IMG/VR virus record: IMGVR_UViG_3300037042_004723
Span: 96,001 to 160,000 of that record
Source: a virus
Length of the DNA stretch: 64,000 nucleotides
Strand: one strand, 5' to 3'
Numbering within the stretch: the first letter of the stretch is position 1; each line of letters starts with the position of its first letter. Below, in pieces: positions 21,113 to 59,753 of this stretch. The notes under the pieces were generated by a model, which was not told the origin of the DNA, made no database searches, and worked only from the letters and a program-made list of their open reading frames with translations. A program made the position numbers and the translations under genes.

Positions 21113-21426
21113 AAGCGAAGAATTCTGTCGTTTATGTCACCAGGACAGTCGGGCCAAATCGTGGCCCCACGACTGGGAGCGAAGCTGAAGACGTTATCGC
21201 AGTCCACAAGTTCGAGACTGAGCCTGCAAGGGTGACGGTGGACTATGCGCTGACGATCAATCTTGGGAATTTTGAGTCGGCCAAGATTGGCGTTTCCGTG
21301 AGCGTGCCTTGCTATGCGGAGGAGCTTGACCAGGCTTATGAATTTGCCCAGGCATGGGCAGAGGAACGGCTGACGCGCGAGCGGGACATGATCACGGCTG
21401 GCCGCGTTGGGCAGTCTTCACTCTAG
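21109..21426 (+). CDS. Conserved phage hypothetical protein
   Basis: TINLGNFESAKIGVSV motif; coupled start. Confidence 0.75.
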   Translation: MKAKNSVVYVTRTVGPNRGPTTGSEAEDVIAVHKFETEPARVTVDYALTINLGNFESAKIGVSVSVPCYAEELDQAYEFAQAWAEERLTRERDMITAGRVGQSSL

Positions 21427-21434
21427 GAATATTC

Positions 21435-30331: not shown

Positions 30332-30360
30332 AAGCCCGCGCTCATGCGGGCTTTGTTTTG
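30332..30360 (+). terminator. Intrinsic terminator
   Basis: AAGCCCGC-N6-GCGGGCTT-TGTTTTG. Confidence 0.75.
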
Positions 30361-30381
30361 TCCAGATCTTTGCGTAAAAAT

Positions 30382-30410
30382 TTGCGCGTTTGATCTGTTG
30401 GCAATAGTAT
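30382..30410 (+). promoter_or_regulatory. Sigma70-like promoter of the 30.4-38.8 kb operon
   Basis: TTGCGC-N17-TAGTAT, 8 nt before ATG 30419. Confidence 0.5.
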
Positions 30411-30418
30411 CCGACGGT

Positions 30419-32293
30419 ATGGCAGACGCTATCCCTGGAAAGAAGTCTCGGTGGACCTCTGAACAGGAGGATCTATTGCGTAAGCTATGGGGAACGCAGC
30501 GAGATATCGAACTTGCTAATGTCCTGGGCAAGACGATCAAATCGGTGCGGTCCAAGGCGACCGAGATGAACATTCGCGCCGAGAAGGGCCTCAGGACAGC
30601 ATGCAGGTCTGGTCGCGTATCTTATCCGTGGAGGGCAGACGAAGACCTTGTTCTTGTTAAGAATGTCGGGCACCTCAGCATATTCGAGTTGATGAACCTG
30701 TTGCCTCGCAGGAATCGCTTGGCCATCGAACGCCGTTGCTATGAGCTTGGCTTCTCTCCGACGCAGGGTACTCACACGCGCCTCCAGATAGAACGAGAGA
30801 CCGGATACGACTGGAGACAGATCCAGCGGGCCCGGGACGCTCTGGGTCAGGCTTGGAAGCGATACGGCACCCGCAAGTACATGATAACCTTTGATCAAGT
30901 TCAGGATATCATTGAGTATTTGCGGACCGAGACGAGAAAGTGGTCTCTCCACTACGACTTAGATCGGTGCATTCTTTGTGGAGTCTCTGGAGCTGAAGAG
31001 CGAACCAGGCATTCCGGCGATGGGCTTTGCAAACGATGCGTGAGTGGAGACACCAGGATTATGGTCCGGGGGCGCGGCCTTTTGCGCATTGATGAGATGA
31101 CTGACAGTGGAGAGTTCGAGGTGTGGTCAGGTAAGGCATGGAGGACTACTACGGCGGTGGAGTCTGGCGTTCAACCAGTCGTTGAGGTTCTATTGAATAA
31201 TGGTTCGAGGATCAAACTTACTGGCGATCATCCGATTTTGACTGATTCTGGAATGATTCACGCCCACGTAATCGATAACGAAAGACTTCCATTAGAATTG
31301 CCATCCGATGTCTGCTTTCCGGAAGTTGCCATGATTTCAAGCGTTAATTGGCATAGTGGTGGTCCGCATGAACAATTCCCACGTGAGTGGACTCGTGACG
31401 TAGGAATGTTCCTTGGTGTCGTCCTTGGTGATGGAGCAATGTCAGGTGGAGAATATCCAACGATTATAATTGGCCTCGGCCGGCAGGACAGAGACGACTT
31501 GATTCATCTCCGAGATGTCGTGGGTGGATGGTGCGGATCAAAGTCTCAAGTTGTTGATTTTGAAAGCAGTCCTAACAAATTTTGCGATGAGCATAGGCCG
31601 ATGTCACGCATTCAGTGGAGGGTCAAGTCTCTGATTGAATTCGTTGGGCAGCTTGGATTAGACAAAAGTCTGCCCATCGAGGAACGTCGGGTTCCTTCTT
31701 CTATTTGGACCGCCAGCGCATCAGGCGTTTCCGGTTTCTTGGCAGGACTGTTTGGTACCGACGGTGCTGTCAGTGTTAACGGTGCTGGCAAGATCGAGAT
31801 ATCAATGTCCTCCGTGAGCGCAGGATTGTTGGAAGACGTTCAAAATCTCTTATGTGCTTTTGGGATCAAATCATCGATGTGGTCGTACCCGAAGAAAGAG
31901 CAATATAAGCAACTATTTGCACTTAGTGTCTTTGGTAAGAAGAACGTTGATTTATTTACACGGCGTATAGGCTTTTCTTGTCGGAGGAAGCGGGATGCCT
32001 TGGCGAAGGCGATCTCGGAATCGACCATCGTTGGTCGAGGTAACCGCCATCTCTCCGTTGAGAGTGTTAGGGATGTTGGAGTCGAAAAGGTCTACGATCT
32101 TGTTAACGTGGGGGATGAGCGACAGTTCGTTGCTAACGGTATAAGTGTTTCAAATTGCTGGGATTTCCGTAGGCATGGTCGGGTCCAAGTGCTCGATGCC
32201 CTGCGGAAGGGAAGGGTGATGATTCTGACTGAGGAGATTTGGCACGCTTACATACGCGACGAACCAGAAGTGCGAATCGTTTCTGCAGTTTAG
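30419..32293 (+). CDS. Myb/SANT-like repeat and zinc-finger regulator, interrupted by an intein
   Basis: RWTSEQEDLLRKLW and PWRADEDLVL repeats; CILC...H...GLCKR|C zinc finger; 251 aa after splicing. Confidence 0.8.
   Translation: MADAIPGKKSRWTSEQEDLLRKLWGTQRDIELANVLGKTIKSVRSKATEMNIRAEKGLRTACRSGRVSYPWRADEDLVLVKNVGHLSIFELMNLLPRRNRLAIERRCYELGFSPTQGTHTRLQIERETGYDWRQIQRARDALGQAWKRYGTRKYMITFDQVQDIIEYLRTETRKWSLHYDLDRCILCGVSGAEERTRHSGDGLCKRCVSGDTRIMVRGRGLLRIDEMTDSGEFEVWSGKAWRTTTAVESGVQPVVEVLLNNGSRIKLTGDHPILTDSGMIHAHVIDNERLPLELPSDVCFPEVAMISSVNWHSGGPHEQFPREWTRDVGMFLGVVLGDGAMSGGEYPTIIIGLGRQDRDDLIHLRDVVGGWCGSKSQVVDFESSPNKFCDEHRPMSRIQWRVKSLIEFVGQLGLDKSLPIEERRVPSSIWTASASGVSGFLAGLFGTDGAVSVNGAGKIEISMSSVSAGLLEDVQNLLCAFGIKSSMWSYPKKEQYKQLFALSVFGKKNVDLFTRRIGFSCRRKRDALAKAISESTIVGRGNRHLSVESVRDVGVEKVYDLVNVGDERQFVANGISVSNCWDFRRHGRVQVLDALRKGRVMILTEEIWHAYIRDEPEVRIVSAV
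31037..32155 (+). mobile_element. Intein (LAGLIDADG, 373 aa) ending Ser-Asn
   Basis: KR|CVSGDT...LTGDHPI...LGVVLGDG...FLAGLFGTDG...ANGISVSN|C. Confidence 0.93.
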
Positions 32294-39668: not shown

Positions 39669-42600
39669 ATGGCCATCAGGGATCTTGGTGGGAGAGTTCG
39701 CAGCGAGCAGACGAAGGACGAGGTGCTTCGTCTGCTGAGGACTGAATTTGCGAACCTGAGCGACGAAGAAAAGCAGGCGGTGATGCTCTGCCTGAAGGAG
39801 CTTGATGACCCGGCGTTCAACGACATGGAGGCCAATGGGGAGGTCGCCCCTACGAGGATCTACGATGTCTTGACCGAGGCTGAATATATTCGCAAGCCAG
39901 TCGACATCGAGACGTTCGTCAGAGATCCATATTATCTCGGGAAGACCTGCGATGTTCTCTATCCGAAGCTTCTCGACGATATGAAGGAGCTGTTTGGCGG
40001 TCACTACCGAGAGACCATCCTGAGCGGTAGCATCGGTTGGGGGAAGTGCCTGGATTCATTGACAGAACTATATAACACGAAGACCGGGAGGCGAGAGCTT
40101 ATTTCCGACGTATCGGACCTTGGCGTCGCCTCGATGGTCGACGGGGGCGGAATAGAGCCCAGGGATGCGTCCTGCTTCAAGTCGGGCAGGAAGCGGTGCG
40201 TCAGGGTTGCGCTGGCCGACGGGAAGTCGATCGTTGCCAGCAACGACCACAGAATCTTCACTGCGCGAGGGTGGGTGGGGGCGTCTAAGCTTGGCTGTGA
40301 CGACTTGGTCGCCACTCCAAGGAAGCTGCCAGATCCGGACTCAACAACCGACGTTGCCGATTCCGTTGTGAAGCTGGTGGCGTACCTGTTGGCCGACGGA
40401 GGGTGTACCGGGCCGACGACGTTCACCAACGCCTGCGAGGATGTACTTGTTGAGTTCTGTGAGCTTGTCAACGAGCTTGGCGACAGCTCTCAGTATGACA
40501 AGTGGCACCGGCACATAGAGACTGGTGTTGCCATCGTCGATGATGGCAACAGCGGGATGGCCCTGACACTGAGGGCTAGTGGGGTCAGGCACCTGGTTAC
40601 AAGGTACGGGTGTGACAAGAAGTCGATCGACAAGCGTATTCCTGCCGAGTTCTATGGGTTGCCAAGGAACCAGGTTGCTCTCTTTTTGAACCGATTCTGG
40701 GCGTGCGACGGGTCGTTTTCCGTGGCATCGCCCAGGAAGGTTGAGATTGGGCTGGGATCCGAGGGGCTCGTAGATGACTTGATGTTCTTGTTGCTTCGCC
40801 TTGGGATTCAGTCGCGCAAGTACTACAAGAAAAAATCTTGCACTTACAAGGGAGAGAAGAAGTGGTTCGACTCGTGGTGCCTTACGGTAACGGACAGGGA
40901 TGGCATCATTAGCTTTCTGGACGCCGTTGGACCAGTGGTTGGCAAGGTCGATAAGTGCATGGCGCTGCGTGCGGCGTGCGAGGCCGTCAAGTCGAATCCG
41001 AACTGCGATGTTGTTCCGGTTGGCAATGCGGAGCTGCTTGAGATAAGGTCTGAGCTTGGCTCTCGTGGCGGAGGGCTTTCCGCTAGGTTTGGATGTCCAG
41101 AGGGGCAGCTGTTCTCTCGCCAGCGATTTGAGAAGCTTTGTTCTGAGTATGAGTACGTCGGCAAGTATTCGTGGCTGGCCGGGTCGGATATCTACTGGTC
41201 GAAGATCAAGGAGGTCGTCGATGTTGGAGACCGCGATGTCTACGACCTGACGGTCCCAGGTACCGAGAATTTTGTTGCGAACAACATAGTGGTTCACAAC
41301 AGTTTCTTTGCGTCCATCGCAGCCTGTCGGATCATCTACGAGCTGTCGTGCATGCGAGATCCGCACAAGAGCTTCGGCATCGGTAAGGGCACCGACATCA
41401 CGATGGTCGTTCTTTCTGTCAAGGAAGACCTAGCGATCAAGGTCGCCTTCGAAAACATCGCAAATAAGATCAAGGAAAGCGATTATTTCAAGGAGAACTT
41501 CCCCTTCAAGCCGATGAAGAAGGAGATCATCTTCCCCAGTAAGATCCAGATCGCAGCTCGTGCCTCAACGGATAGCGCAGCACTCGGTCTCAACGTCTTC
41601 GCGGCTTGGATTGACGAGTCCAACTTCATGCAGCCCATGAAGAAGAAGGGCGGGATCGAAAGTCGCGTCGGGAACATGGATCGAGCCCAGTTCCTCTACG
41701 ACCAGCTTATTCGTCGTATGAAGTCTCGCTTCCAGCGCCACGGCAAGTTGCCAGGCATGATGATCGTGGTGTCGTCGAAGCAGACGCGCGATGACTTCAC
41801 GGCCAAGCGGATCAAGGACTCCAAGGACGACCCAACCGTCTTCGTTCGCGACTATGCAACCTGGCACGTGAAGCCGGATGGGATTTACTCCAAGGAGACG
41901 TTTTATGTCCTCGTGGGAAACGACTTGGTCCCGTCTAAGGTCCTCACACCTGAGGAGATCGACGTCACCAGGGATAAGCTACAGGACGGGATGCTCATCA
42001 TTGATGTCCCTATCGACTTCAAGAACGATTTCACGAGCAATATCGAAGACTCCATTCGAGACATTGCCGGCGTCGAGACGGTTTCGGTGTCGCCGTTTAT
42101 CCAGCAGCGAGATCTGATCATCCCGTGCATCGACGTTAATCGTCAGCATCCGTTTACCGTTGAGGAGTGGGTCCCCACCGAGCACGGAAAGTTCGTGTGG
42201 TCGAGGCTGGCCAGACAGGTGGAAGTCCGCGACGGCGCTTCGATTAGTCGAGAATGGCAGCCGTTGTTTCACCAGGGCGCCGCCAGGCATATTCACATCG
42301 ATCCATCGCTCAACTCCGATGCGACCGGGTTCGCTGTTGGCTGTGTCACTGGGTACAAGACGGTCGTTCGCCGTGACGAGGAGACGCGCGAGCAGTACAC
42401 AGAGCGAGCCCCTGAGATCTGGGTAGACTTCATGCTTCGCATCAAGCCTCCCATTGGGGGCGAGATTGATCACGGTCTTGTTCGGTCGCTCGTCTATCAG
42501 ATGCAGGCTAAGGGGTTTTCGATCAGCCTAATCACGATGGACCAGTTCAATTGCCTAGTTGCCGGTACGATGGTGCCTACGGCACGCGGGATACTGCCGA

Positions 42601-44060
42601 TCGAGCAGGTCGTTGTCGGGGACATCGTTCAGTCGCGCATCGGTCCTCGTCCGGTCGAGAACACCTGGAACTACGGGGAGAGGGAGACGATCAAGATCGT
42701 CACTCAGGATGGCGATGTTCTTGAGGGGACGCCGAATCACAGGATTGAGATCCAGGTTGGGTGGACCAAGGAGCACCAGAACGAGTACGGGTGGACGAGG
42801 GACCCTGTCTGGGAGTGGAAAACGCTGTCCGAGCTGTCGGTGGGCGATGTGGTCCACATGGCCGATCAGCCGGTCTCCCTTGACCCGCCGGACGTAGAGC
42901 TGAGCGGGTGCAAGGAAGACTTCGGGTGGACGAGTCCGCGTGGCCTGATCGGCAACTGGACGCTGCCGTCAAAGATGACGCCTGAATTGGCCGAGTTCCT
43001 TGGCCTGCTGTGGGGCGACGGCGACGTCTCTGACAAGCTGATCAGGCTGACGTTCCACGTGGACGACACGGAGGACGTCCAAGCGAAGTTCATTGGCCTT
43101 TTCGGTGAATGCCCAGCTGTCGAGGTTAGTCGTCTGACGGACAAATGCGCGTCCGTTCGTTTTGGATCCACGTGGGTGTGCCGATGGATGGCGCACAACG
43201 GCCTGGTCAAGCCGACGATCCCTGATGCCGTCATGCGTTCAAGCAAGGCAGTCAAGTCGGCGTTCCTAAGGGGACTTTTCTCTGCCGACGGCGCGGTCAG
43301 CAAGATTGACGGAGAGATCTCTCTGGGAACGTCGGTGAGATGCCTCGCTGAGCAGGTGCGGCTAATTCTCCGCGCCGACTTTGGGATTGAGAGCTGCCTG
43401 GTGACCACGGAGAAGAAGTACAAGAGCCAGCAGGCGATGCCAGGGTGGCACGGTGGGCTTCACTACGTAGTGTCCGTTCGTGGCCCCAGGAGGCGGTTCC
43501 AGGAGAGAGTCGGGTTCTGCTATCGGGGCAAGTCAGAGATGCTGGCGAGACATGTCGAGGTGAATGGGCGCCGCAAGTTCTCGAAGATTGTCGACATCGA
43601 GCATGGGTTCGGAGAGGTGTTCGACATTCAGGTTGCAGACGACCCGTCGTACATCGCGAATGGGTTCGTTTCGCACAATTCGGCAAGCTCTCTGCAGACA
43701 TTTGCCACTAAGGGAATTACGGCCGAGCGCCTGTCCGTAGATAAGCCGATGGATGCGTACGATATCCTTAAGACAGCTATCTACGAGAACAGGCTCAGCT
43801 TCTACGGATACAATCCGTTGCTTGAAGAGTTGCGGTGGATCCAGAAAGACAACATCCGCAACAAGGTGGACCACCCACAGGGCAAATCCAAGGATCTCGC
43901 GGACGCCCTGGCTGGTATCGTCTTCTCGTTGACGACGATGTATCACGGCCCCCCGATGGGGGTGTACAAGGGGATATCGCAGTTCAATGACCCGGTAGCC
44001 GAGGAACAGCGAGAGATCGTAGAAGAGGACTTCCCCCTGCTACCTTTTCTGCAAGGATGA
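39669..44060 (+). CDS. terL: Terminase large subunit with two inteins
   Basis: Walker A GSIGWGK|S, Walker B AWIDES, nuclease HIHID, MDQ, DHP..KSKDLADA; 669 aa after splicing. Confidence 0.93.
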   Translation: MAIRDLGGRVRSEQTKDEVLRLLRTEFANLSDEEKQAVMLCLKELDDPAFNDMEANGEVAPTRIYDVLTEAEYIRKPVDIETFVRDPYYLGKTCDVLYPKLLDDMKELFGGHYRETILSGSIGWGKCLDSLTELYNTKTGRRELISDVSDLGVASMVDGGGIEPRDASCFKSGRKRCVRVALADGKSIVASNDHRIFTARGWVGASKLGCDDLVATPRKLPDPDSTTDVADSVVKLVAYLLADGGCTGPTTFTNACEDVLVEFCELVNELGDSSQYDKWHRHIETGVAIVDDGNSGMALTLRASGVRHLVTRYGCDKKSIDKRIPAEFYGLPRNQVALFLNRFWACDGSFSVASPRKVEIGLGSEGLVDDLMFLLLRLGIQSRKYYKKKSCTYKGEKKWFDSWCLTVTDRDGIISFLDAVGPVVGKVDKCMALRAACEAVKSNPNCDVVPVGNAELLEIRSELGSRGGGLSARFGCPEGQLFSRQRFEKLCSEYEYVGKYSWLAGSDIYWSKIKEVVDVGDRDVYDLTVPGTENFVANNIVVHNSFFASIAACRIIYELSCMRDPHKSFGIGKGTDITMVVLSVKEDLAIKVAFENIANKIKESDYFKENFPFKPMKKEIIFPSKIQIAARASTDSAALGLNVFAAWIDESNFMQPMKKKGGIESRVGNMDRAQFLYDQLIRRMKSRFQRHGKLPGMMIVVSSKQTRDDFTAKRIKDSKDDPTVFVRDYATWHVKPDGIYSKETFYVLVGNDLVPSKVLTPEEIDVTRDKLQDGMLIIDVPIDFKNDFTSNIEDSIRDIAGVETVSVSPFIQQRDLIIPCIDVNRQHPFTVEEWVPTEHGKFVWSRLARQVEVRDGASISREWQPLFHQGAARHIHIDPSLNSDATGFAVGCVTGYKTVVRRDEETREQYTERAPEIWVDFMLRIKPPIGGEIDHGLVRSLVYQMQAKGFSISLITMDQFNCLVAGTMVPTARGILPIEQVVVGDIVQSRIGPRPVENTWNYGERETIKIVTQDGDVLEGTPNHRIEIQVGWTKEHQNEYGWTRDPVWEWKTLSELSVGDVVHMADQPVSLDPPDVELSGCKEDFGWTSPRGLIGNWTLPSKMTPELAEFLGLLWGDGDVSDKLIRLTFHVDDTEDVQAKFIGLFGECPAVEVSRLTDKCASVRFGSTWVCRWMAHNGLVKPTIPDAVMRSSKAVKSAFLRGLFSADGAVSKIDGEISLGTSVRCLAEQVRLILRADFGIESCLVTTEKKYKSQQAMPGWHGGLHYVVSVRGPRRRFQERVGFCYRGKSEMLARHVEVNGRRKFSKIVDIEHGFGEVFDIQVADDPSYIANGFVSHNSASSLQTFATKGITAERLSVDKPMDAYDILKTAIYENRLSFYGYNPLLEELRWIQKDNIRNKVDHPQGKSKDLADALAGIVFSLTTMYHGPPMGVYKGISQFNDPVAEEQREIVEEDFPLLPFLQG
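40047..41300 (+). mobile_element. TerL intein 1 (LAGLIDADG, 418 aa)
   Basis: GK|CLDSLT...SNDHRI...VAYLLADG...FWACDG...IVVHN|S. Confidence 0.95.
42552..43679 (+). mobile_element. TerL intein 2 (LAGLIDADG, 376 aa)
   Basis: FN|CLVAGT...TPNHRI...LGLLWGDG...LRGLFSADG...FVSHN|S. Confidence 0.95.
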
Positions 44061-46550: not shown

Positions 46551-49500
46551 ATGGGATTTTGGGGACAAGTCGGAGACCGCGTTCGCGGTTTATTGCGTTT
46601 CGATAAAGAGCAGGTAGTCCTTAATCTTGCCAAGGGCGGGTCTGCCTCTGGCTATCCGCAGACTGGGTTTGATCTCCTCCAGTCGTACGGCCAGGACGTC
46701 CTCAGCGACTACCTCAAGCTCGAACATGACCTGATGGCCAGGTTCGTTGACTACGAGGAGATGGACGACTATCCGGAGCTGGCGTGCCTAGACGGGGACA
46801 CTCTCGTTTTCACACTGGAATACGGGTGGGAGGCGATCCGTAGCCTCGCCGCGAGAGGTGGAGACTTTCACGTTCTCGCCTATGACCGTGAGAGCAAGTC
46901 CCTGGTTCCGGCGATGGCGCGGAACGCTCGTGCCACGGGTGCGGCTGGGCACAGCAAGCAGATGGTCAGAGTTGTCATGGACAACGGGCAGGCAATCGTT
47001 TGCACGGCTGATCATATGTTCTTCTCCAAGGAGGAGAACTGGATTCAGGCTTCTGGCTTGCGGGCCGGGCAGAGGCTAATGCCGGGGGTTCTTCGGTCAA
47101 GGAGCCTGAACGGTGACTCGGATGGCTCCTACTGGGAGGTTCACCAGCCGAATAGCGACTCGGTTATCAGAACTTCCGATGGGAAGCGCTGGACGTGGGT
47201 TCATCGCCTGGTGGGAGAGATGATGCTGGGAGCCGGGCGCGGAGATATCGTCCATCACAAGGATGAGAATTCCCTTAACAACGCCCCAGACAATCTGAGC
47301 GTGGAAACATACAGCAGCCATGCTGGCGTCCATATCGCCAGGATCAACAATTCATCATATCTGCCTGAATGGAATGACGAGCGCAAGAGAGCTAAGTCAT
47401 TGGCGATGCTTGGCAATTCGCATAGAATTGGCAAGCGCGACAGCGCGGAGACTCGCGCTAAAAAGTCGGCGGCTCGTGCAGGTCGGCCGCTCACGGATGA
47501 TCATCGCCGAAAAATTGGCGACGCTCACCGGGTTAGCTTTACTCGTGAGCAAGTGGAGTCGGCCTACAGGAGTGGCGGGTCTGTCGCCGAGGCGGCGAGG
47601 ATTCTGGGCGTGTCGTGGGGTACGGCTCGCCGGAACCTTGATCGCTATGACCTAATTGTTGACGATGGGAATCACCGCGTAGTTCGCGTTGAGTTCCTCG
47701 ATGATCGTCCCGAGATTTTCGATCTTGAGGTTCCTGGCTATCACAACTTTGTCTGCAATGGCGTTGTTGTTCATAATTCAGCCATCGATATTTATGCCGA
47801 CGACGCGACGCAAACGGAGTCGCTTCAGAACAAGGTCGTTTGGATCGATAGTCCAGACAAGACCGTTCAGATGATTCTGGAAGATCTTCTCTGGAAGAGA
47901 CTTCGCATCGACGAGGAGGTCTGGGAGATCACCCGGACCCTGGTCAAGTACGGCAACGACTACGAGGAGCTTCTCGTAACCGGTGACGGTCTGGTTGGCC
48001 TCAATTTCCTGCCTCCTCCCACGATGCGTCGAATCGAAGGCCGGCGTGGGGAGTTGTTTGGATTCGTCCAGGACTACAAGGGGCGCTTCGGATACAGCCC
48101 TGAGGAGTTCAAGCAGCTATTGACCCAGCGTGCGGCTGGTGGGAATAGCCCGCAGAACAAGTATGCCGCCCTTGAGGATTGGGAGGTCTCCCACTTCAGG
48201 CTGAGGTCGAAGCATCGTCGGTCGATCTATGGGTACTCGGTCCTTGAGCCAGCTCGTTGGATCTGGAAGCGCCTTATGCTTCTTGAGGATGCAGCGATGG
48301 TCTATCGACTGCAGCGCGCTCCGCAGCGGTACGCCTTCTATATTGACGTTGGCGATATGCCGCCGAAGGAAGCGATGGGCTTCCTTCATAAGATGCGTCA
48401 GCAGTACAAGAAGACTAAGTTTTACAATCCGCAGTGCCTGACCGGCGAAACCTGCGTGACGTTGCTGGATGGCACCGACAAGAGCATGTCGGAGCTTGTT
48501 CGCGACTACGCTGACAAGACGTTCGACGTGTTCTCCTACGATTTGGAGACCGGTCGCGTGGTGCCGGGCAAGGCCAGAAACCCTCGCCTGACCCATGAGC
48601 AGGCGCCGATCTGGCGGGTGGTGTTGGATAACGGTTCCGTCGTGCGCTGCACGGGGAATCACCCGTTCCTGATGAGGGACGGTGAGTACAAGGCTGCCAA
48701 TACGCTCGCGTCCGGCGATTCCCTGATGCCGCTGTACATGTCACGCGGGTCGAAGGGCACGCATGGCTACTGGATGTATCAGGAGCCTGGAACCGGCCAG
48801 CGCAAGCATGTCCATCGGATGGTCGCGGAGGCTGTATGGCCAGATATGGCTGCGGCGAATATGCAGGTTCATCACGTTGATCACAACAAGGCCAATAACG
48901 CCCCCGGGAACCTGCAGTGGCTGACCGCGTCCGAGCATGCGCTGCATCATCCTGAGCGCCATCAGGCCGCGCGAGCTGCCTACGTCAAGCGCGTCAAGAA
49001 TGATGAGGCGTTCAGGCGCGAAATCGCAGGGCGAATCTCCAACTGGCGCAAGACAAAGCCTGACGAGGCGTTCGCGGCGACGTCGAGCCACAGCAAGCAG
49101 ATCATGGCCGACCGGGTGGCTTCGGCCAAGCCGGCTCACGATGCCATGATGGTCATCATCGAGGGCGAGGTCGTTAGAGATCCGCTCGTGGTTATCGAGG
49201 AACTCGCCGACCGGCTCAACGCGAACGATGAGTTCGCTAAGCTCTACGCTGACCTTCCAACCACAAAGAATTCGACAATCACAGGCGGATGCCTGCACGC
49301 ATTCTTGCGTCGTCATGGTTTTGACGGCTTCAAGGACTTCAAGAACAAGAAGACCAATCAGGCTCGGTGGAGAAATCGCACATACGGCAAGGAGGTCACC
49401 GAAGGCACGGAGGCGCACAACCATAAGGTCGTTAGCGTTTCATTCGAAGGATACGAGGACGTCTATAATATGGACGTCGAAAAGTATCATAATTTTGCCC

Positions 49501-51689
49501 TTACAAATGGCGTATTCGTCCATAATACCGGCAAGTTAGATCTCAAGTACAACCCGCTCTCGCAGGACGAGGATTTCTTCGTTCCCGTGCGCAAGGGTGT
49601 CCAGGCGACCAAGATTGACGTCGTGGGCTCGCCATCATGGCAGCACATGGAGGACATCGAATACTTCAAGCTGAAGCTCTACGCGGCGATCAAAGTTCCC
49701 AAGGTCTACCTCGGGTCTGAGGCACCGCGAGCCAAGGGCGTGCTGTGCTTGACTGGCGACACGCAGGTACCGCTGCTTGATGGTCGGCAGATTGCGCTCA
49801 AAGATCTTGCCGCAGAGCACGGCGCCGACGGCACCTTCTACGTTTACTCCTGTGACAAGGATGGCAACGTTGTGCCCGGTGAGGCCGTTGGCTGCCAGAT
49901 GACCAGGCCCGACGCTGAAGTCTGGGAGGTCGAACTGGACGATGGCTCTAAGGTTCGCGGGACGGCAGACCATCCGTTCTTGATGCGTGATGGGACTTAT
50001 TGTGAACTTGGGTCCCTCAAGCCAGGCGATTCCCTGATGCCGCTCTACCGCAAGGAGGCAAGTGGCACGGGGCGCGGCGAGAAGCTGGCCGGATACGAGA
50101 TGGTCCAGCATCCGTCTACTGGCAACTGGGAGTACACACATCAGGCGGTCAGCCGGGATGCGTGGGGTGATGCCTGGTACATGCTCGATGGCAAGCAGGC
50201 CGTCTGTCACCATGCCTCATTCGACAAGAGGAATAACGATCCTCGCTCCTTGGTGCGCCTGACCAAGGAAGATCACATCCTCCTGCACGCAGATCACGCA
50301 GAAAAGACCCTGCAGCGTCCAGATGTTGTTGAGGCCAGACGCAAAGGGGTCAAGGCATGGACCGACACCGAGAGGTGTAAGGACATCGCCAGGGGTAACC
50401 TGGCTGCCGTGAAGGCAGATCCGGACTCCGCCTGGTGGGCCTGGCAGCAGTCTGACGAGCATCGCGCCGCCAAGTCATCACAGATGACAGTCCAGTGGAG
50501 CGACGACTCGTCTCTGATGCGAAGCTCTCATCAGACGGATGAGTTCAGAGAGACGATGAGCGCGGCTGCGTCCAACAACTGGGACGATCCAGACTATCGG
50601 TCGCAGCGCGAAGGAGCCAATAACTCCAGATGGAGAGGCGACGTCAACCTTCAGCACCTGATTAACATCGCTGATAGTTATCGGTGCCGTAATCGGGACG
50701 AGCTGATCAAGTGGTCGAAGTGCTCGTGGTCGCTGATTGCCAGGATCTTTCGCGATAACGAGACCTCGTACGCCGAATTCGCTGCCAAATATATGGTCGG
50801 CGGATACAGGCTGTGCGCGAAGGGCGTTGGGCCGGTCATGACTCCGGACATCTTGACCAACAACTTGCCTGCACCCGTTAATCACTCGGTTGTCGCAGTT
50901 CGATTTGTTGGCCGCGAGGATTGCTACGACATCACGGTCAAGCAGCATCACAACTTCGCCGTGGCGGCCGGTGGCGTAAGCGGTGTTTTTGTTCATAATT
51001 CGCAGGAAGACGTACGTTTTGCCAGAACCGTCCTGCGTATCCAGCGTGAAGTGAGGAACGGCATCAAGAAGATGTGCCGCGTCCACTTGGCTGCTCTCGG
51101 CATCAATCCGAGCCAGGTCGACTTCGAGGTCTACATGACGACCCCGAGTTCGATCTTCGAATTGGCTCAGCTAGAGGTCAGAAATGCGAAGGCGGACTTT
51201 GCTGGCCGCATGAGCCAGTTTGTTTCCTTGCACTGGATTCTCCAGAAGGTATTTGGACTTAGCGAGGAAGAGATCGAGTACATCATCAAGGAGCGCCATC
51301 AGGAGCAACTTGCTGATGCCGAGGTTCAGTCGAAGGCCATGGGCCTCACCGTGGACGTGCAGAATACGGCCGCCCTGAAGCAGCAGGCTGCGACGACCAG
51401 TCTCCAGCAGCAGATGGCAACGGCTCAGCCGAACACGCAGGCATCCGAGGACCTGCGCAAGCACATGCGCGCCTCAGGCAGCCTGTCTCATATGTGGCCA
51501 CAAATGAGACAAAACCTTGGCTATCGCCCGATATCCGAACAAGAGCTATTCCACGGCAATCGTGAGCACGAGAAACTTGTTGGGGACAATCTGGAGAAGA
51601 TCCTGGAGTCCAATACGTCTTTAGCCAGGAGACTCGCTGAGTTGGGTCAATTGGTTAACGAATTGAAGATGAGCATGCCTGGTCGCTAG
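46551..51689 (+). CDS. Portal protein (T4 gp20-like) with three inteins
   Basis: YPEL|SAID, LEPARWIWKRLMLLEDAAMVYRLQRAPQRYAFYIDVG.MP, EDFF.PVR.G...TKID, YF...LYAA.KVP, EDVRFA; 599 aa after splicing. Confidence 0.93.
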   Translation: MGFWGQVGDRVRGLLRFDKEQVVLNLAKGGSASGYPQTGFDLLQSYGQDVLSDYLKLEHDLMARFVDYEEMDDYPELACLDGDTLVFTLEYGWEAIRSLAARGGDFHVLAYDRESKSLVPAMARNARATGAAGHSKQMVRVVMDNGQAIVCTADHMFFSKEENWIQASGLRAGQRLMPGVLRSRSLNGDSDGSYWEVHQPNSDSVIRTSDGKRWTWVHRLVGEMMLGAGRGDIVHHKDENSLNNAPDNLSVETYSSHAGVHIARINNSSYLPEWNDERKRAKSLAMLGNSHRIGKRDSAETRAKKSAARAGRPLTDDHRRKIGDAHRVSFTREQVESAYRSGGSVAEAARILGVSWGTARRNLDRYDLIVDDGNHRVVRVEFLDDRPEIFDLEVPGYHNFVCNGVVVHNSAIDIYADDATQTESLQNKVVWIDSPDKTVQMILEDLLWKRLRIDEEVWEITRTLVKYGNDYEELLVTGDGLVGLNFLPPPTMRRIEGRRGELFGFVQDYKGRFGYSPEEFKQLLTQRAAGGNSPQNKYAALEDWEVSHFRLRSKHRRSIYGYSVLEPARWIWKRLMLLEDAAMVYRLQRAPQRYAFYIDVGDMPPKEAMGFLHKMRQQYKKTKFYNPQCLTGETCVTLLDGTDKSMSELVRDYADKTFDVFSYDLETGRVVPGKARNPRLTHEQAPIWRVVLDNGSVVRCTGNHPFLMRDGEYKAANTLASGDSLMPLYMSRGSKGTHGYWMYQEPGTGQRKHVHRMVAEAVWPDMAAANMQVHHVDHNKANNAPGNLQWLTASEHALHHPERHQAARAAYVKRVKNDEAFRREIAGRISNWRKTKPDEAFAATSSHSKQIMADRVASAKPAHDAMMVIIEGEVVRDPLVVIEELADRLNANDEFAKLYADLPTTKNSTITGGCLHAFLRRHGFDGFKDFKNKKTNQARWRNRTYGKEVTEGTEAHNHKVVSVSFEGYEDVYNMDVEKYHNFALTNGVFVHNTGKLDLKYNPLSQDEDFFVPVRKGVQATKIDVVGSPSWQHMEDIEYFKLKLYAAIKVPKVYLGSEAPRAKGVLCLTGDTQVPLLDGRQIALKDLAAEHGADGTFYVYSCDKDGNVVPGEAVGCQMTRPDAEVWEVELDDGSKVRGTADHPFLMRDGTYCELGSLKPGDSLMPLYRKEASGTGRGEKLAGYEMVQHPSTGNWEYTHQAVSRDAWGDAWYMLDGKQAVCHHASFDKRNNDPRSLVRLTKEDHILLHADHAEKTLQRPDVVEARRKGVKAWTDTERCKDIARGNLAAVKADPDSAWWAWQQSDEHRAAKSSQMTVQWSDDSSLMRSSHQTDEFRETMSAAASNNWDDPDYRSQREGANNSRWRGDVNLQHLINIADSYRCRNRDELIKWSKCSWSLIARIFRDNETSYAEFAAKYMVGGYRLCAKGVGPVMTPDILTNNLPAPVNHSVVAVRFVGREDCYDITVKQHHNFAVAAGGVSGVFVHNSQEDVRFARTVLRIQREVRNGIKKMCRVHLAALGINPSQVDFEVYMTTPSSIFELAQLEVRNAKADFAGRMSQFVSLHWILQKVFGLSEEEIEYIIKERHQEQLADAEVQSKAMGLTVDVQNTAALKQQAATTSLQQQMATAQPNTQASEDLRKHMRASGSLSHMWPQMRQNLGYRPISEQELFHGNREHEKLVGDNLEKILESNTSLARRLAELGQLVNELKMSMPGR
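46785..47777 (+). mobile_element. Portal intein 1 (HNH + NUMOD3-like + HTH, 331 aa)
   Basis: LA|CLDGDT...TADHMF...VHRLV...VHHKDENSLNNAPDNL...VVVHN|S. Confidence 0.95.
48435..49526 (+). mobile_element. Portal intein 2 (HNH, 364 aa)
   Basis: PQ|CLTGET...TGNHPF...VHRMV...VHHVDHNKANNAPGNL...VFVHN|T. Confidence 0.95.
49746..50999 (+). mobile_element. Portal intein 3 (HNH, 418 aa)
   Basis: VL|CLTGDT...TADHPF...THQAV...CHHASFDKRNNDPRSL...VFVHN|S. Confidence 0.95.
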
Positions 51690-53786: not shown

Positions 53787-54009
53787 GGCTCCAGACCGAG
53801 GAGCCCAGGGCTAGGCGAACGGCCTACGCATCGGGACGCAAGGAATTGGCATTCGGTCTAGAGCCACGTGACGGCCCAATGGGCAAATCAACAAGGAGTC
53901 CAAAGCGGAGAAAAAGCAGTTCAGATCTATCGCTTTGTTACGATGTGAGTTTCAAGTCGCCCGTAATTAAAAGATCTGAATTCAGTTTCCCATTTTGGTC
54001 AAAAGGCTA

Positions 54010-55608
54010 ATGTCCAACGAAAAACAACTACTTGTTGACACGTTTTCCTTCAGGGCTACCGTCCTGGAGGAAAGCAAGTCAGGTCCCGGCGAGTACATCG
54101 CCAAGGGCGAGTTTGCTCGTTCGGATAGACCAACCGAGAACAAGCGACTATATCCAGCGACCCTCTGGGAGCGCGAGATCGGACGCCTGTCTAAGCAGAT
54201 GAAGGAAATGAAGGTCTACGGCGAGCTGGATCATCCGATGGATGGTCGGACGCAGCTCAAGCGCGTATCCCACATTATTTCCGACCTCCACATGGAGGGC
54301 AACATTGTCGTCGGTACGGCTCGCATCCTCAACACGACTGAGGGCAGAAACCTCAAGGCAATCATTGAGGCAGGCGGAGCAGTTGGTGTTTCGTCTCGTG
54401 GATTTGGTACTACCAAGCCAAACCTTCAGGGAGAAGAGGTTGTTCAGCCGGATTATCGGTTGATGACTTTCGATTTTGTCGCTGAGCCAGCGCAGCAGAG
54501 CGCCTATCCGAAAATTAGCATCGAGAGCACTAATGCTCATCGAAAGATGGAGGCAGCAATGGATGAGAGTATGACATTTAATGAGTTCAAGAGGACTCAT
54601 CCTGAGCTGGCCGAGCACTTTGCTGACGACGCTCAGCGTGAGTACGAGAAGCGTGGCGCTGAGATTTGGGCCAAGAAGATTCTTGGCACCAAAACTGAGG
54701 TCGCCACGAATCTCCGTGCCGAGTTCGCCGAGAAGCTTGAGGCGGCCGTCGCTGAGGCCAAGAAGGAGATGGAGAAGTCCGTCACCGAGCGCCTCATGAA
54801 TGACCCCTCGGTTGCCCTTGCCAAGAAGGCGATGAGCGAGCTGAAGGACGTCCTTCGTCCGTTCGTTATTCCTTCCGACGTGGAGTCGGTCGTCAGGTCA
54901 AAGGAAGAGGTCATCGGCCAGCTTGAGAACAAGCTGGCGGAGAAGGATCTCGAAATTGCTAACCTGATCAGCGAGAATGACAAGCTTGCGAAGATCGCCA
55001 AGGAAGCTGGCTACAGGTATCACCTGGAGCAGCGCCTGAACGATATCGGTAACGCGGACGAGATCCGCTCTCTGGTTGGTGATGTGAAGCGGTACAGGAC
55101 CCTAAGGGATATGGACAAGCAGATCGTTCAGATCGCTGAGTCCATCGCCCTCAGAGATACTGAGGAGTCGAGGCGCGATGAGCGCGTCGCTCAACTTGAG
55201 GAAGAGGTTGCCACGCAGAAGCTGATCGCCGAGAAGGCGCTTGAGGCTAGCAAGCACCTCGCTGCCCAGGTCTACCTGGAGCAGCGCCTCGCAAATCACC
55301 CCAATCAGGAGTACGCGCGTACTCTCACTGAGTCTCGTCAGCCCGCGACCAAGGAACAGGTCGATGCGCTGATGGCGAAGTCACTGCCCCGGGTATCCGT
55401 TACTGAGGATATCGAAGCAGCTCGGGCCCGCGTTCGTCAGTTGACGAACAGCGGTACTCGTGAGTATCTGCAGGAGCAGGAAGAGGGCAAGGGATCTATG
55501 GGTGGTAACCATGATGGTGCCACTCGCGATTACAACGGGCTCGGAGCGAATCTCAACGAGATCCGTGCCCTATCGGGGCTGCCAGGCAAGGGCACTCAGA
55601 GCAACTAA
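54010..55608 (+). CDS. Prohead protease (T4 gp21-like) with C-terminal coiled-coil scaffold
   Basis: N.R.YP, GELDHP, VSHII, GVSSRG.G, TFDFVAEPA. Confidence 0.92.
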   Translation: MSNEKQLLVDTFSFRATVLEESKSGPGEYIAKGEFARSDRPTENKRLYPATLWEREIGRLSKQMKEMKVYGELDHPMDGRTQLKRVSHIISDLHMEGNIVVGTARILNTTEGRNLKAIIEAGGAVGVSSRGFGTTKPNLQGEEVVQPDYRLMTFDFVAEPAQQSAYPKISIESTNAHRKMEAAMDESMTFNEFKRTHPELAEHFADDAQREYEKRGAEIWAKKILGTKTEVATNLRAEFAEKLEAAVAEAKKEMEKSVTERLMNDPSVALAKKAMSELKDVLRPFVIPSDVESVVRSKEEVIGQLENKLAEKDLEIANLISENDKLAKIAKEAGYRYHLEQRLNDIGNADEIRSLVGDVKRYRTLRDMDKQIVQIAESIALRDTEESRRDERVAQLEEEVATQKLIAEKALEASKHLAAQVYLEQRLANHPNQEYARTLTESRQPATKEQVDALMAKSLPRVSVTEDIEAARARVRQLTNSGTREYLQEQEEGKGSMGGNHDGATRDYNGLGANLNEIRALSGLPGKGTQSN

Positions 55609-55626: not shown

Positions 55627-57108
55627 ATGGAAGCGAGACAGCTAATGTTGACTGAGTCCAAGCGGTCCATCGCCGACAAGGGGTTTATCCAATCCCTTAT
55701 CGGTAAGTGGGGCGAGCTGCTTGAGGGGATCGAAAATCCCTACACTCGTGGTGTCACTGCGATGCTCATGGAAAATGAGTCGCAGTGGCTTCAGAACCTG
55801 GAAGAGGAGACCAAGACGATCAACGTCGGTTCCTTTACCAAGTTCATCTTTCCGGTTCTCCGGAGGGTGTTCCCGAACCTGATTGCCAACGAGATTGTGT
55901 CGGTTCAGCCGATGACAGCCCCGATTGGCGCAGTTTTCTTCTTCGACTACAAGTACGGGTCCAACAAGGGCTCGACTCAGGCTGGCGCGGTGTTCCCGCG
56001 CGACTTCGACAGGGACTACTCTTCGGAGTTCGTCCGTGACGAGCAGCTTGCGGTTGGTGACGGCGCCTCCTTTGGCGGTGTTGGTGCGGCGCTTGCGGCG
56101 GTCATGTCGTGGACCCCGGTTCGCCCGTTGAACGCAGCCCTGGGCTTCTCGGTCCAGATCATCGAAGTCAATGCGGCCACTGGCACGGTCATTCAGACCG
56201 GTACGGACAACGGCACTGGTGGCTTCACCGGCGCGGTTACCGCTGGCGCCATCAACTACGGCTCGGGCGCGGTTACCGCGTTTAAGTTCACGGTTGCTCC
56301 GCTGATCACCAGCAAGATCGTCGCTCGTTACTTCTATGACGGCGAGCTGAACACCAAGATTCCCCAGGTCAACCTGGACATCACCAAGCAGCCCATCGAA
56401 GCGATTCCGCGTCGCCTCAAGGCTCTTTGGTCGTCTGAGGCGGCCGAGGATCTCCGTGCATTCCACGGCCTCGATGCGGAGACCGAGCTGGTTTCCGGTA
56501 TCGCTCAGGAGATCGCTCTTGAGATCGACCGTGAGATCATCAACGACCTGTTCGTGACCTCGGCGTCGGGTCGTACTGACACCTTCTCGCTTACGCCGCC
56601 CGCCGGCATCAGCGAGATCGACCACCTTCGGTCGATGATCACGAAGATCAGCTCGATCTCGAACTTCATCCACAAGGACACTCTCCGGGCTCCGGCGAAC
56701 TTCCTTGTGACGTCGCCCGAGATCTCGGCTCGTCTGTCGCAGCTGACCACGCACGGCGACTTCCGGCCCCTTTGGGTGTCGGGTGGCGCGAGCCCGTACG
56801 GCCCGGCTGATATGCCGCGCCCGCTGACTCAGCATGGCCAGTTCGGTATCTACAAGGTCGGCACCCTGATGAACAAGTGGGTCGTCTATGAGGATCCCTT
56901 CTTCGACAGCGACAAGATGCTCATCGGCCTCAAGGGCGCGAGCTTCCTGGATGCCGGCTACGTGTGGGCGCCGTACATCCCGCTGCAGGTCACCCCGACG
57001 TTCCTCGATCCGGCTGACTTCTCGTTCCGTAAGGGCCTGAGGACCCGCTACGGAAAGAAGGTCCTTAGATCCGAATATTACGGTAGGATCACCTTCACTG
57101 GCCTGTAA
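55627..57108 (+). CDS. Major capsid protein (T4 gp23-like)
   Basis: LIANEIVSVQPMTAPIG..F, R.LKALWS.EAAEDLRA.HGLDAE.EL, EIDREII, YAPYIPL-like VWAPYIPL, GL.TRY. Confidence 0.95.
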   Translation: MEARQLMLTESKRSIADKGFIQSLIGKWGELLEGIENPYTRGVTAMLMENESQWLQNLEEETKTINVGSFTKFIFPVLRRVFPNLIANEIVSVQPMTAPIGAVFFFDYKYGSNKGSTQAGAVFPRDFDRDYSSEFVRDEQLAVGDGASFGGVGAALAAVMSWTPVRPLNAALGFSVQIIEVNAATGTVIQTGTDNGTGGFTGAVTAGAINYGSGAVTAFKFTVAPLITSKIVARYFYDGELNTKIPQVNLDITKQPIEAIPRRLKALWSSEAAEDLRAFHGLDAETELVSGIAQEIALEIDREIINDLFVTSASGRTDTFSLTPPAGISEIDHLRSMITKISSISNFIHKDTLRAPANFLVTSPEISARLSQLTTHGDFRPLWVSGGASPYGPADMPRPLTQHGQFGIYKVGTLMNKWVVYEDPFFDSDKMLIGLKGASFLDAGYVWAPYIPLQVTPTFLDPADFSFRKGLRTRYGKKVLRSEYYGRITFTGL

Positions 57109-57206: not shown

Positions 57207-58067
57207 ATGACCAAGGATGTTAAGTTTGATCTTCTGGATGGATGGTCACAGGAGAAGGCTTGGTGGTTGGGAGCTACTTACGGTGACGGCAATATCTATG
57301 GACGAAGCGACAAAGGGGCATACCGGGTTTCCATTGTTTGCAATCTCAGCACAGTTCAGCAATGGACGGCCCTGATCTGCCCAGACGCCGGTATTGAGCA
57401 GAGGACGCCAAATGCCTGGGAGGGTTATATCTACTCAAAGCGCCTGGTTGAGTGGTTTGCTGCCCGTGATCTGGTAGGCAAGAAATCGCATCGACTGGTG
57501 TGGCCAGAAGATCTTCCGGCTCAGTTCTATCCAGACTTCTTGCGTGGCCTTTGGGACACAGACGGAAGCGTCAAGATCGAGAAGCGGCGCCTTAAGCAAG
57601 GCAACGACACTCTGCGAGCCATGTTTTGCGCTCAGAACGAGAGCTTCGCGCAGCGAGTTCAGGATGAGGTTGTTGCTGGGTCGAAGGTCCAGCCTGGGAA
57701 GTTGATTCGTCAGGAGAAGATCTTGTCCGGCAAGTCCCATAGCTGGAGCACCTTCAAGCATACCGGCGCCCCAGCCGTCCTGGTCTGCGACTACCTCTAC
57801 GGCGATGCGCCGGCTCACATCCGTGGCGAGAGCCGGTATCAGGTCTATCGGGACTACGTTGATTCGCGTCCAGAAGGCTCATGCCGATGTGGTGGCGAGG
57901 CCTGGACTGAGGCAATGTGTCGCACCTGTTGGTGGACCAAGCGTCGGGTCGACACTCCTAAGAAGATTTGCCAATGCGGGCGCGATGTTGTCGCTAAGGG
58001 CATGTGCCTGAACTGCTATAAGCGAGCGGCGCGCAAGCATGATAGTGTCATCACGTCTGGTTCTTGA
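57207..58067 (+). CDS. Free-standing LAGLIDADG homing endonuclease with C-terminal Cys-rich fingers
   Basis: WLGATYGDGN and FLRGLWDTDGS; two C.C...G.C..C repeats. Confidence 0.88.
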   Translation: MTKDVKFDLLDGWSQEKAWWLGATYGDGNIYGRSDKGAYRVSIVCNLSTVQQWTALICPDAGIEQRTPNAWEGYIYSKRLVEWFAARDLVGKKSHRLVWPEDLPAQFYPDFLRGLWDTDGSVKIEKRRLKQGNDTLRAMFCAQNESFAQRVQDEVVAGSKVQPGKLIRQEKILSGKSHSWSTFKHTGAPAVLVCDYLYGDAPAHIRGESRYQVYRDYVDSRPEGSCRCGGEAWTEAMCRTCWWTKRRVDTPKKICQCGRDVVAKGMCLNCYKRAARKHDSVITSGS

Positions 58068-58790: not shown

Positions 58791-59753
58791 TTGACACCGA
58801 CGGATTGTCCGAGGTCGAGCGGCATCGTGGCGCAGCCTAAAGCAAGAGAACAATGGGCCCCTGACTGCGGGCGCTCTCCTGACATCGCTCTTCGCGATTG
58901 CAGCGAGTGTCTCAAGGCTCGCCCATCGTCTGAATTCAAGCGCAAAAGTGCCAAGTGTCGAGATTGTCGTAATGCGTATAAGCGAAAGCATTACAAAAAA
59001 CACGCTGCCAAGCACAGCGATCAGGTTAAGCAGTACAGAAAAGACAACCCAGACAAGGTTCAGTCTGTTCGCATTGCATACAAGGAAGCCAAAAACAGGC
59101 TAGCTCGCGAGAAATACAGAAAGACCACCGAGCTTCTCAATGGCATAAAGAGTTCTCCATGCGCAGACTGCGGAGGTGAGTTCCCTCCGGAATGCATGGA
59201 CTTTGATCACGTTAATGGGATCAAGATCGACTGCGTGGGCAGCCTAAAGCTCAATCCCGGCAAGATGTTAGAGGAGATATCTAAAACCGAGCTTGTATGT
59301 GCATGCTGCCATAGGATTCGAACCAAAAGCAGGCGGCCGGAGAAGCCTTTGCTGGCTGTTGCTCAATCTGATTCGAAGCCGCAAGATCCTGATGACGATG
59401 ACAAAAGTAAGGCCTGGTTTCGGGATTACTACATACGGAACAAGGATCGGCTGCTCAAGCTCGGCAGAGATCGCCGGATGGCGAACAAAGCTTTTATAGA
59501 TGAAAAAAAGGCGTCGCCTTGTGCCGATTGCGGCAAGACGTTCCCTCCCGTGTGCATGGATTTTGATCACGTTAGAGGAGAAAAGATTAATGATATAAGT
59601 CAGATGACGTCCAATAGAATCGATCTAATCAGAGAAGAGATCGATAAAACGGAAGTTGTCTGCGCCTGCTGTCACAGGACAAGGACATCCAAAAGAGGCT
59701 ACAACGCCGTAGGCTTACAGGAAGTGGTGGCCAGTGCCGAAGTTAATGAATGA
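58791..59753 (+). CDS. Protein with two tandem zinc-finger HNH-like domains
   Basis: CADCG..FPP.CMDFDHV.G.K...EEI.KTE.VCACCHR.RT twice; start uncertain. Confidence 0.8.
   Translation: MTPTDCPRSSGIVAQPKAREQWAPDCGRSPDIALRDCSECLKARPSSEFKRKSAKCRDCRNAYKRKHYKKHAAKHSDQVKQYRKDNPDKVQSVRIAYKEAKNRLAREKYRKTTELLNGIKSSPCADCGGEFPPECMDFDHVNGIKIDCVGSLKLNPGKMLEEISKTELVCACCHRIRTKSRRPEKPLLAVAQSDSKPQDPDDDDKSKAWFRDYYIRNKDRLLKLGRDRRMANKAFIDEKKASPCADCGKTFPPVCMDFDHVRGEKINDISQMTSNRIDLIREEIDKTEVVCACCHRTRTSKRGYNAVGLQEVVASAEVNE

Follow-up and report, generated by a model that had tools for sequence, protein, structure and literature searches.

An open reading frame for a phage portal protein raises the question of how one structural gene comes to hold three inteins, and whether these arose from one another, serve the phage as a control on head assembly, or arrived separately as selfish elements. 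The gene lies in the 64,000-nt stretch analyzed here (the window), which comprises bases 96001-160000 of a 197,279-bp IMG/VR virus record; the genome is that of an uncultured T4-like phage and is rated complete by CheckV. An initial annotation, made from the letters of the window and their open reading frames, counted 1113 of the 1712 aa (65%) as intein, a figure that proves exact (331 + 364 + 418 aa by motif mapping), and offered two explanations: a radiation of one HNH-intein lineage within one gene, or a post-translational checkpoint on head assembly. The reading that we consider very probable is a different one, namely that the T4 gp20-type portal carries three independently acquired, site-specific, and still functional homing inteins.

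The frame is open over 5139 nt and constitutes a single ORF of 1712 aa. Searched as a whole against Pfam, it matches Portal_T4 in three pieces (194.7 bits; cut-off 22.9), together with Intein_splicing three times (154.9 bits) and HNH_3. When the exteins are joined, the result is a T4 gp20-like portal of 599 aa. In the intein-free allele L005, the Portal_T4 match runs in one stretch (model positions 4-433), and a profile of 26 intein-free relatives matches the T4 gp20 structures (probability 99.3). Identity to T4 gp20 is about 25% and covers the C-terminal half only. An AF2 model of a 95%-identical intein-free allele is of moderate quality (pLDDT 65), and its best PDB matches are T4 gp20 chains (Foldseek E 7e-18 to 5e-13). 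The neighboring genes follow the T4-like head-gene order of TerL, portal, prohead protease, and gp23 (Table 1). By profile, fold, and placement in the head-gene cluster, the host protein is a T4 gp20-like portal (PF07230). Once excised, it has the same fold and gene order as T4 gp20 (PDB 3JA7, 6UZC; PMC4493910), which itself is without an intein. No second portal match was found in the 197,279-bp genome, and megablast of the portal gene against GenBank phages returned no match.

Table 1. Features of the portal locus and its neighbors, with positions given in the window and residues numbered in the precursor protein unless marked as intein residues
Feature	Position	Strand	Residues	Remarks
TerL	39669-44060			upstream of portal gene
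Portal precursor gene, gp20-like portal with three inteins	46551-51689	+	1712 codons + stop	ORF, translation, Pfam
Extein 1, portal N-terminal part	46551-46784	+	1-78	joined to extein 2 in intein-free L004 and L005
Intein 1, 331 aa, site a (extein 78/79)	46785-47777	+	79-409	Cys1 to His-Asn, +1 Ser; motif mapping
Intein 1 HNH nuclease motif	47187-47333	+	intein 135-183	HNH_3 match 47196-47321, local HNH profile, motif alignment
Intein 1 putative helix-turn-helix DNA-binding module	47556-47651	+	336-367	sub-cut-off Pfam matches
Extein 2, wing region	47778-48434	+	410-628	Portal_T4 model positions 18-241
Intein 2, 364 aa, site b (extein 297/298)	48435-49526	+	629-992	Cys1 to His-Asn, +1 Thr; motif mapping
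Intein 2 HNH nuclease motif	48801-48950	+	intein 123-172	HNH_3 match 48804-48941, motif alignment
Extein 3, clip + stem + tunnel-loop part	49527-49745	+	993-1065	Portal_T4 237-308; T4 gp20 residues 318-396
Intein 3, 418 aa, site c (extein 370/371)	49746-50999	+	1066-1483	Cys1 to His-Asn, +1 Ser; motif mapping
Intein 3 divergent HNH nuclease motif	50127-50291	+	intein 128-182	weak HNH_3 match 50193-50276; HH..NN..H
Extein 4, bent helix + rest of wing + crown	51000-51689	+	1484-1712 + stop	Portal_T4 322-433; T4 gp20 from residue 397
gp21-like prohead protease	53995-55608			downstream of portal gene
gp23 major capsid protein	55627-57108			downstream of portal gene
Free-standing endonuclease ORF	57207-58067			near head genes; missing in L004 and L005
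Free-standing endonuclease ORF	58791-59753			near head genes

The boundaries of the three inserts can be read against related alleles. A scan with extein 2 yielded 80 IMG/VR loci (51-97% identical), and the joined 599-aa extein aligns uninterrupted in most of them. Five of these portals (L004, L005, L006, L007, and L009) are uninterrupted across all three junctions. Across the whole joined extein of 599 residues, the intein-free L004 and L005 share 93-95% identity with the window's portal; the residues flanking all three junctions are identical, and the sequence is contiguous across each. At the DNA level (blastn), relatives are 79-91% identical in the extein and show clean gaps at the same three points. 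We interpret the inserts as discrete elements with the ends listed in Table 1, and intein-free alleles are the strongest possible sequence evidence for such an assignment. The GC content of the inteins (0.57-0.58) is close to that of the exteins (0.557), and base composition thus gives no hint that the inteins arrived recently.

All three inteins start with CL(D/T)G(D/E)T, and the TxxH of block B takes the form T(A/G)(D/N)H. Their ends, written with the +1 residue after the slash, are VVHN/S, FVHN/T, and FVHN/S for inteins 1, 2, and 3, respectively, with block F as D..V...HNF before. The Pfam profile Intein_splicing (PF14890) scores 59.7, 67.0, and 42.0 bits in the same order (cut-off 35.8), and the Hint parts match the solved DnaE, DnaB, and gp41-1 inteins. 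From the splicing residues, the profile matches, and the exact in-frame insertion, we assign all three to the class 1 inteins.

The initial annotation had described all three as HNH-type, a description that holds on differing grounds. Pfam HNH_3 recognizes intein 1 (30.4 bits) and intein 2 (43.1 bits; cut-off 24.8), whereas intein 3 reaches only 14 bits, which is not significant at the same cut-off. With the Pfam match insignificant, the HNH assignment of intein 3 comes instead from its homology to intein 2, to which it is 43% identical over residues 1-183, a span that covers the HNH_3 match of intein 2, and from the HH..NN..H pattern: the three-way alignment shows HH, NN, and the distal His kept in all three inteins. 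Pfam gave no LAGLIDADG match in any of them. The nuclease region of intein 2 also aligns, weakly (E 0.0056), with residues 36-121 of I-HmuI (PDB 1u3e).

Beyond the HNH motif, the three inteins diverge. The NUMOD-like basic repeats noted initially find weak support: a NUMOD3-like stretch occurs in intein 1 only, at 14.6 bits (cut-off 20.4), and no match in any of the three passes the cut-off. Intein 1 additionally matches HTH_29, HTH_28, and HTH_Tnp_ISL3 (E ~1e-4, all below their cut-offs), which places its modules in the order HNH, NUMOD3-like basic stretch, and then helix-turn-helix. The same order is found in I-HmuI of Bacillus phage SPO1, although I-HmuI comes from a group I intron and the portal's nucleases lie in inteins. 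Between the HNH motif and block F, there is no detectable similarity among the three inteins, and in inteins 2 and 3 this region matches no family; its variability would fit a role in target recognition. Each element is composed of a class 1 Hint domain, an inserted I-HmuI-like HNH nuclease, and a lineage-specific region presumed to bind DNA.

Orthologous inteins in two relatives allow selection to be gauged. Intein 1 has orthologues of 331 aa in L017 and L012, and intein 3 has one of 412 aa in L012. Relative to the orthologous inteins in L012 and L017, dN/dS is ~0.09-0.14 where calculable, a rough value given that dS is saturated, or undefined for several regions, and dN lies far below dS in every module, the nuclease and the unannotated middle region included. 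All intein modules are under purifying selection. This result bears on the possibility that the inserts no longer splice and that the portal gene is non-functional, which we list since the genome is a metagenomic assembly without proof of viability and for which there is no positive evidence. It is countered by the open frame, the presence of all catalytic splicing residues, the purifying selection, and the completeness of a genome with no second portal match, and we regard it as very improbable.

To describe where the inteins sit in the portal, structural sites were named by the T4 gp20 domain limits published in PMC4493910. Site a lies near T4 gp20 residue 88-89, where the ordered wing begins; in the model it falls inside helix 75-88, the first one to be predicted well. 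This placement, made via Pfam model coordinates and the AF2 model, is only rough because in the profile searches only the portal's C-terminal half aligned with T4 gp20. Site b (Q297/T298) corresponds to S317/T318 of T4 gp20 and falls in the clip domain, at a turn between two strands in the model, while site c (L370/S371) corresponds to I396/T397, the last tunnel-loop residues just before the long bent helix. All three junctions adjoin columns that are invariant, or nearly so, in the family alignment, and inteins usually insert beside conserved positions.

After translation, each intein would excise and join its flanks, and the resulting 599-aa portal would assemble into the dodecamer. Splicing would be expected to precede ring assembly because 330-420 extra residues would hardly fit in the wing helix, the clip-domain hairpin, or the end of the tunnel loop. 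An unspliced subunit probably could not join the portal ring, which likewise places splicing before assembly, and each subunit of the 12-mer would have to splice three times beforehand. Portals are dodecamers, so that, by arithmetic, 36 splicing events would be needed per portal.

These locations are also what gives the proposed checkpoint its appeal. Under that explanation, conditional splicing, responding to redox, temperature, or a partner protein, would time the supply of assembly-competent portal, and the inteins would be kept for regulation. Insertion in sensitive portal parts (the clip hairpin and the tunnel-loop end; PMC4493910) would leave the unspliced protein inert, and the inteins are under purifying selection; however, conserved-site insertion and purifying selection would also be seen in homing inteins that are purely selfish. 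We identified no sensor feature, and portals 93-95% identical to that of the window lack all three inteins. Among the 80 IMG/VR relatives, ~14 have any portal intein and ~66 have none, which indicates that the inteins are dispensable; their combinations vary freely, and mini-inteins without a nuclease are found at sites a, b, and c of other portals. We thus find nothing that speaks for a post-translational checkpoint in particular, and, as far as sequence can tell, consider this suggestion of the initial annotation improbable. Sporadic occupancy and nuclease-less mini-inteins are the pattern expected of selfish homing elements.

The relationship of the three inteins to one another was examined by phylogeny. 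In the Hint-N and HNH region, inteins 1 and 2 are 36% identical, inteins 2 and 3 are 43% identical, and inteins 1 and 3 are 24% identical. In both a FastTree inference of 117 HNH inteins and an IQ-TREE inference of 41 rows, inteins cluster by insertion site and not by genome, and in the IQ-TREE topology one change is enough for every site label. Intein 1 is placed in the site-79 clade, intein 2 in the site-298 clade (100% support), and intein 3 in the site-371 clade. The nearest relative of intein 1 is the site-a intein of P0002 (67%), that of intein 2 is the site-b intein of P0005 (72%), and that of intein 3 is the site-c intein of P0002 (77%). Constraining the three window inteins to a single clade costs a delta lnL of 713.6 (p-AU 2e-107). 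Each of the three falls in an old mobile lineage tied to its own site, one that many related phages from metagenomes also have.

This topology decides against a recent radiation, in which one HNH intein was duplicated and moved to two more sites of its own portal gene. The common architecture and the 24-43% identity among the three could be read in that way, but each is far closer (67-77%) to the same-site inteins of other portals, support for the site clades is good, and the constrained tree fails the AU test; the chance of such an event inside this gene copy is negligible. What survives of the one-lineage radiation envisaged in the initial annotation is that the three are members of a single broad family of HNH inteins. 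Since many other portal sites hold relatives, it is plausible that this family spread long ago among the sites of the portal gene. Inteins from proteins other than portals (e.g., DNA polymerase A proteins) fall among the portal inteins in the tree, and FastTree and IQ-TREE disagree on the deep order of the site lineages; the portal lineages may descend from one invasion or from several. A site can also be used by more than one lineage: the exteins of P0005 are 78-91% identical to those of the window's portal, but its intein at site a shares only 30% identity with intein 1, and two lineages therefore use site a in close relatives.

Independent acquisition of the three inteins would proceed by homing. 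By analogy with known homing elements, the nuclease would cleave or nick the unoccupied site of an intein-less relative during co-infection, and repair would copy the intein in. I-HmuI nicks one strand. We read the triple occupancy as accumulated independent invasions, the gene family being an intein hotspot. The same genome contains at least nine inteins in all, the portal's three included. TerL has two LAGLIDADG inteins, both missing in L006, and one intein each is found in a DnaB-like helicase, in a RecA-like protein (weakly HNH-like), and in a 649-aa ORF of the window; one further intein is located outside the window.

Homing nucleases are dense around the head genes of this genome, and the free-standing endonuclease ORF at 57207-58067 is missing in L004 and L005. 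This setting, along with the intact and conserved nuclease modules of the inteins, would also suit their use as weapons between phages. In such a scenario of marker exclusion, the nucleases would cut the portal genes of intein-less relatives that infect the same cell, the carrier's head-gene region would be over-represented in the progeny, and selection would act partly at the level of the phage. For free-standing nucleases of phages, such a principle has been described (PMC10448857). The scenario overlaps with ordinary homing, from which sequence cannot tell it apart, and we judge it unlikely.

To place the three homing inteins in the context of the portal family, 188 inteins with both ends were taken from 108 long metagenomic portal homologues. 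HNH-type inteins account for 122/188. We resolve 11 recurrent sites, each occupied in at least four protein clusters, at positions 79, 89, 134, 139, 185, 232, 257, 298, 309, 337, and 371, which are the +1 positions in the extein numbering of the window's portal. Positions 74 and 78 were merged with 79, 88 and 90 with 89, and 365 and 368 with 371, which is an assumption for distant portals. HNH inteins are found at sites 79, 89, 298, 309, 337, and 371, and weak LAGLIDADG signals at sites 134, 139, 185, 232, and 257. The nuclease type at the latter five sites was read from precomputed Pfam assignments and from five whole proteins that match Pfam LAGLIDADG_3 or Hom_end weakly; a local LAGLIDADG profile, seeded with the inteins of TerL and the 649-aa ORF of the window, was too weak and gave one match. 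Proline-first inteins were seen at site 309.

Of the 108 homologues, 51 contain one intein, 33 contain two, 16 contain three, and seven contain four. A single protein, P0027 (2794 aa), has five by C-terminal motifs and six Pfam intein stretches. The initial annotation had reasoned that the triple occupancy would be less novel if many gp20-like portals had it. This applies in part: multi-intein gp20-like portals are common in metagenomes, and two further proteins, P0004 and P0044, have sites a, b, and c occupied together. P0004 has an additional, fourth intein at site 89, whereas the inteins of P0044 at sites b and c are mini-inteins. Within the 108-homologue sample, full-length HNH inteins at all three sites are found in the window's protein only.

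Portal inteins as such are known from mycobacteriophages and actinobacteriophages (Kelley et al. 2016, PMC5050341; bioRxiv 10.1101/2025.01.02.630785). In actinobacteriophages, they are polyphyletic and fall into five groups, and the inteins of these phages are overwhelmingly LAGLIDADG, with 712/784 being canonical (10.1101/2025.01.02.630785). The genome studied here resembles those phages in combining portal inteins with inteins in TerL and replication genes. It differs in that actinobacteriophage portals belong to the IPR009279 family and, in the accessible text of the reports, have one intein each, whereas the portal of the window is a PF07230 gp20-like protein with three of HNH type. HNH-type inteins go back to Dalgaard et al. 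1997, cited in 10.1101/2025.01.02.630785 for noting them first, and are described as rare and non-canonical. The three portal inteins share with known HNH inteins the in-frame HNH inside the Hint domain in place of LAGLIDADG; rare among known inteins, this type forms the majority of those mapped in the gp20-like portal family.

Crowding within one gene is well documented in archaea, for instance in the haloarchaeal MCM, which has four insertion sites with inteins of LAGLIDADG type (Turgeman-Grott et al. 2023, PMC10643990). MCM inteins occur in variable combinations and are transferred horizontally without co-homing, and neighboring sites are occupied together less often than expected (PMC10643990). 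As in the archaeal MCM, several independent, site-specific inteins share one conserved gene of the portal family in varying combinations. MCM, however, serves replication in cells, whereas the portal gene encodes a structural protein of a virus and, across its homologues, offers at least 11 recurrent sites and holds up to six inteins per gene.

In light of these comparisons, the window's portal is a crowded example of known selfish elements (class 1 inteins, HNH homing nucleases, and multi-intein genes) and not a new form of assembly control, and the understanding of head assembly is unchanged. It adds a case with exact boundaries, in which three intact HNH-type inteins occupy a virion structural protein. 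The main value lies at the level of the family, which offers occupied and empty combinations of sites, full-length and mini-inteins, and two lineages at one site. This variety is useful for the study of intein homing, site switching, and interference between neighboring inteins, and new splicing domains as well as site-specific HNH nucleases can be drawn from the family.

Literature searches for inteins together with gp20 gave no paper on inteins in gp20-like portals, and this portal family is apparently an undescribed and unusually rich intein hotspot. We raise, tentatively, a broader possibility: that the gp20-like portal gene of this uncultured T4-like clade is among the most intein-dense loci known (at least 11 sites, up to six inteins) and is dominated by one HNH-intein family that has spread time and again to further sites within this gene, with its Hint and HNH core retained and the region presumed to bind DNA exchanged. 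If this is true and undescribed, the clade would provide a natural series for how inteins acquire new target sites, and the portal of the window would be a well-preserved member with all three nucleases intact.

Among 50,697 GenBank phage records, the intein family occurs in a gp20-like portal in one record only, LR756511.1, which is an unannotated, uncultured huge phage.

The portal piece between the second and third HNH-type inteins of the window's portal gene (extein 3; window 49527-49745, 219 bp) is 90-91% identical at the DNA level to its counterparts in intein-free relatives, whereas the remaining extein pieces and flanks show 79-85% DNA identity to the same relatives. This higher identity may reflect either stronger constraint on extein 3 or a gene-conversion tract.

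Among other portals of the same gp20-like family, the most crowded of our sample is P0027 (2794 aa), from a 154-kb metagenomic contig, in which six intein splicing domains occupy sites 79, 139, 232, 257, 309 and 371 (numbered by the +1 residue in the extein of the window's portal). At site 309, where the window's portal is without an intein, the inteins of homologous metagenomic portals (e.g., P0011, P0027 and P0029) end in Lys/Arg-Asn-Ser rather than His-Asn, and in about 20 of them Pro is apparently the first residue. The same intein family as that of the window's portal inteins also includes a mini-intein in LR756511.1, the unannotated GenBank record of an uncultured 595-kb huge phage.

Inteins and free-standing nuclease genes are also found elsewhere in this phage genome, as listed in the table below, whose last row belongs to LR756511.1. 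The helicase intein matches Intein_splicing (73 bits) and LAGLIDADG_3 (53 bits). The intein of the RecA/UvsX-like gene (286 aa) runs from Cys107 to a terminal His-Asn, followed by Ser392, and is distantly similar to the inteins of the portal gene (31% to intein 3 over 106 aa); with its weak HNH_3 signal, it is the genome's fourth HNH-like intein. In the large terminase, locus comparison shows a clean absence of both inteins from the related locus L006.

Features outside the window's portal gene
Feature	Coordinates	Strand	Remarks
DnaB-like helicase gene, 868 aa	window 12039-14645	+	LAGLIDADG intein; Intein_splicing, LAGLIDADG_3
Free-standing HNH nuclease gene, 148-aa ORF	G000 (whole phage record) 114706-114834 (window about 18706-18834)	+	HNH_3
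RecA/UvsX-like gene, 705 aa	window 21354-23471	+	intein about 21672-22529
649-aa ORF	window 30344-32293	+	LAGLIDADG intein; PHROG match D5-like, weak
Large terminase gene, 1463 aa	window 39669-44060	+	two inteins, LAGLIDADG-type
Terminase intein	roughly 40048-41303	+	LAGLIDADG-type
Terminase intein	roughly 42551-43709	+	LAGLIDADG-type
Free-standing endonuclease gene	window 57207-58067	+	PHROG 'endonuclease'; just 3' of major capsid gene
Free-standing endonuclease gene	window 58791-59753	+	PHROG 'HNH endonuclease'; just 3' of major capsid gene
Mini-intein, about 237 aa	L085 5001-5711 (L085 = LR756511.1 527994-538293, reverse complement)		in gp20-like portal near site a (79) and the neighbouring site 89

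Of the two endonuclease genes beside the major capsid gene, the first lies in a stretch for which the related loci L004 and L005 have about 15-125 bases instead, making it a homing-nuclease gene with a presence/absence polymorphism. The 148-aa ORF gives a strong match (44.8 bits) to HNH_3, the Pfam family to which the nucleases of the inteins also belong.
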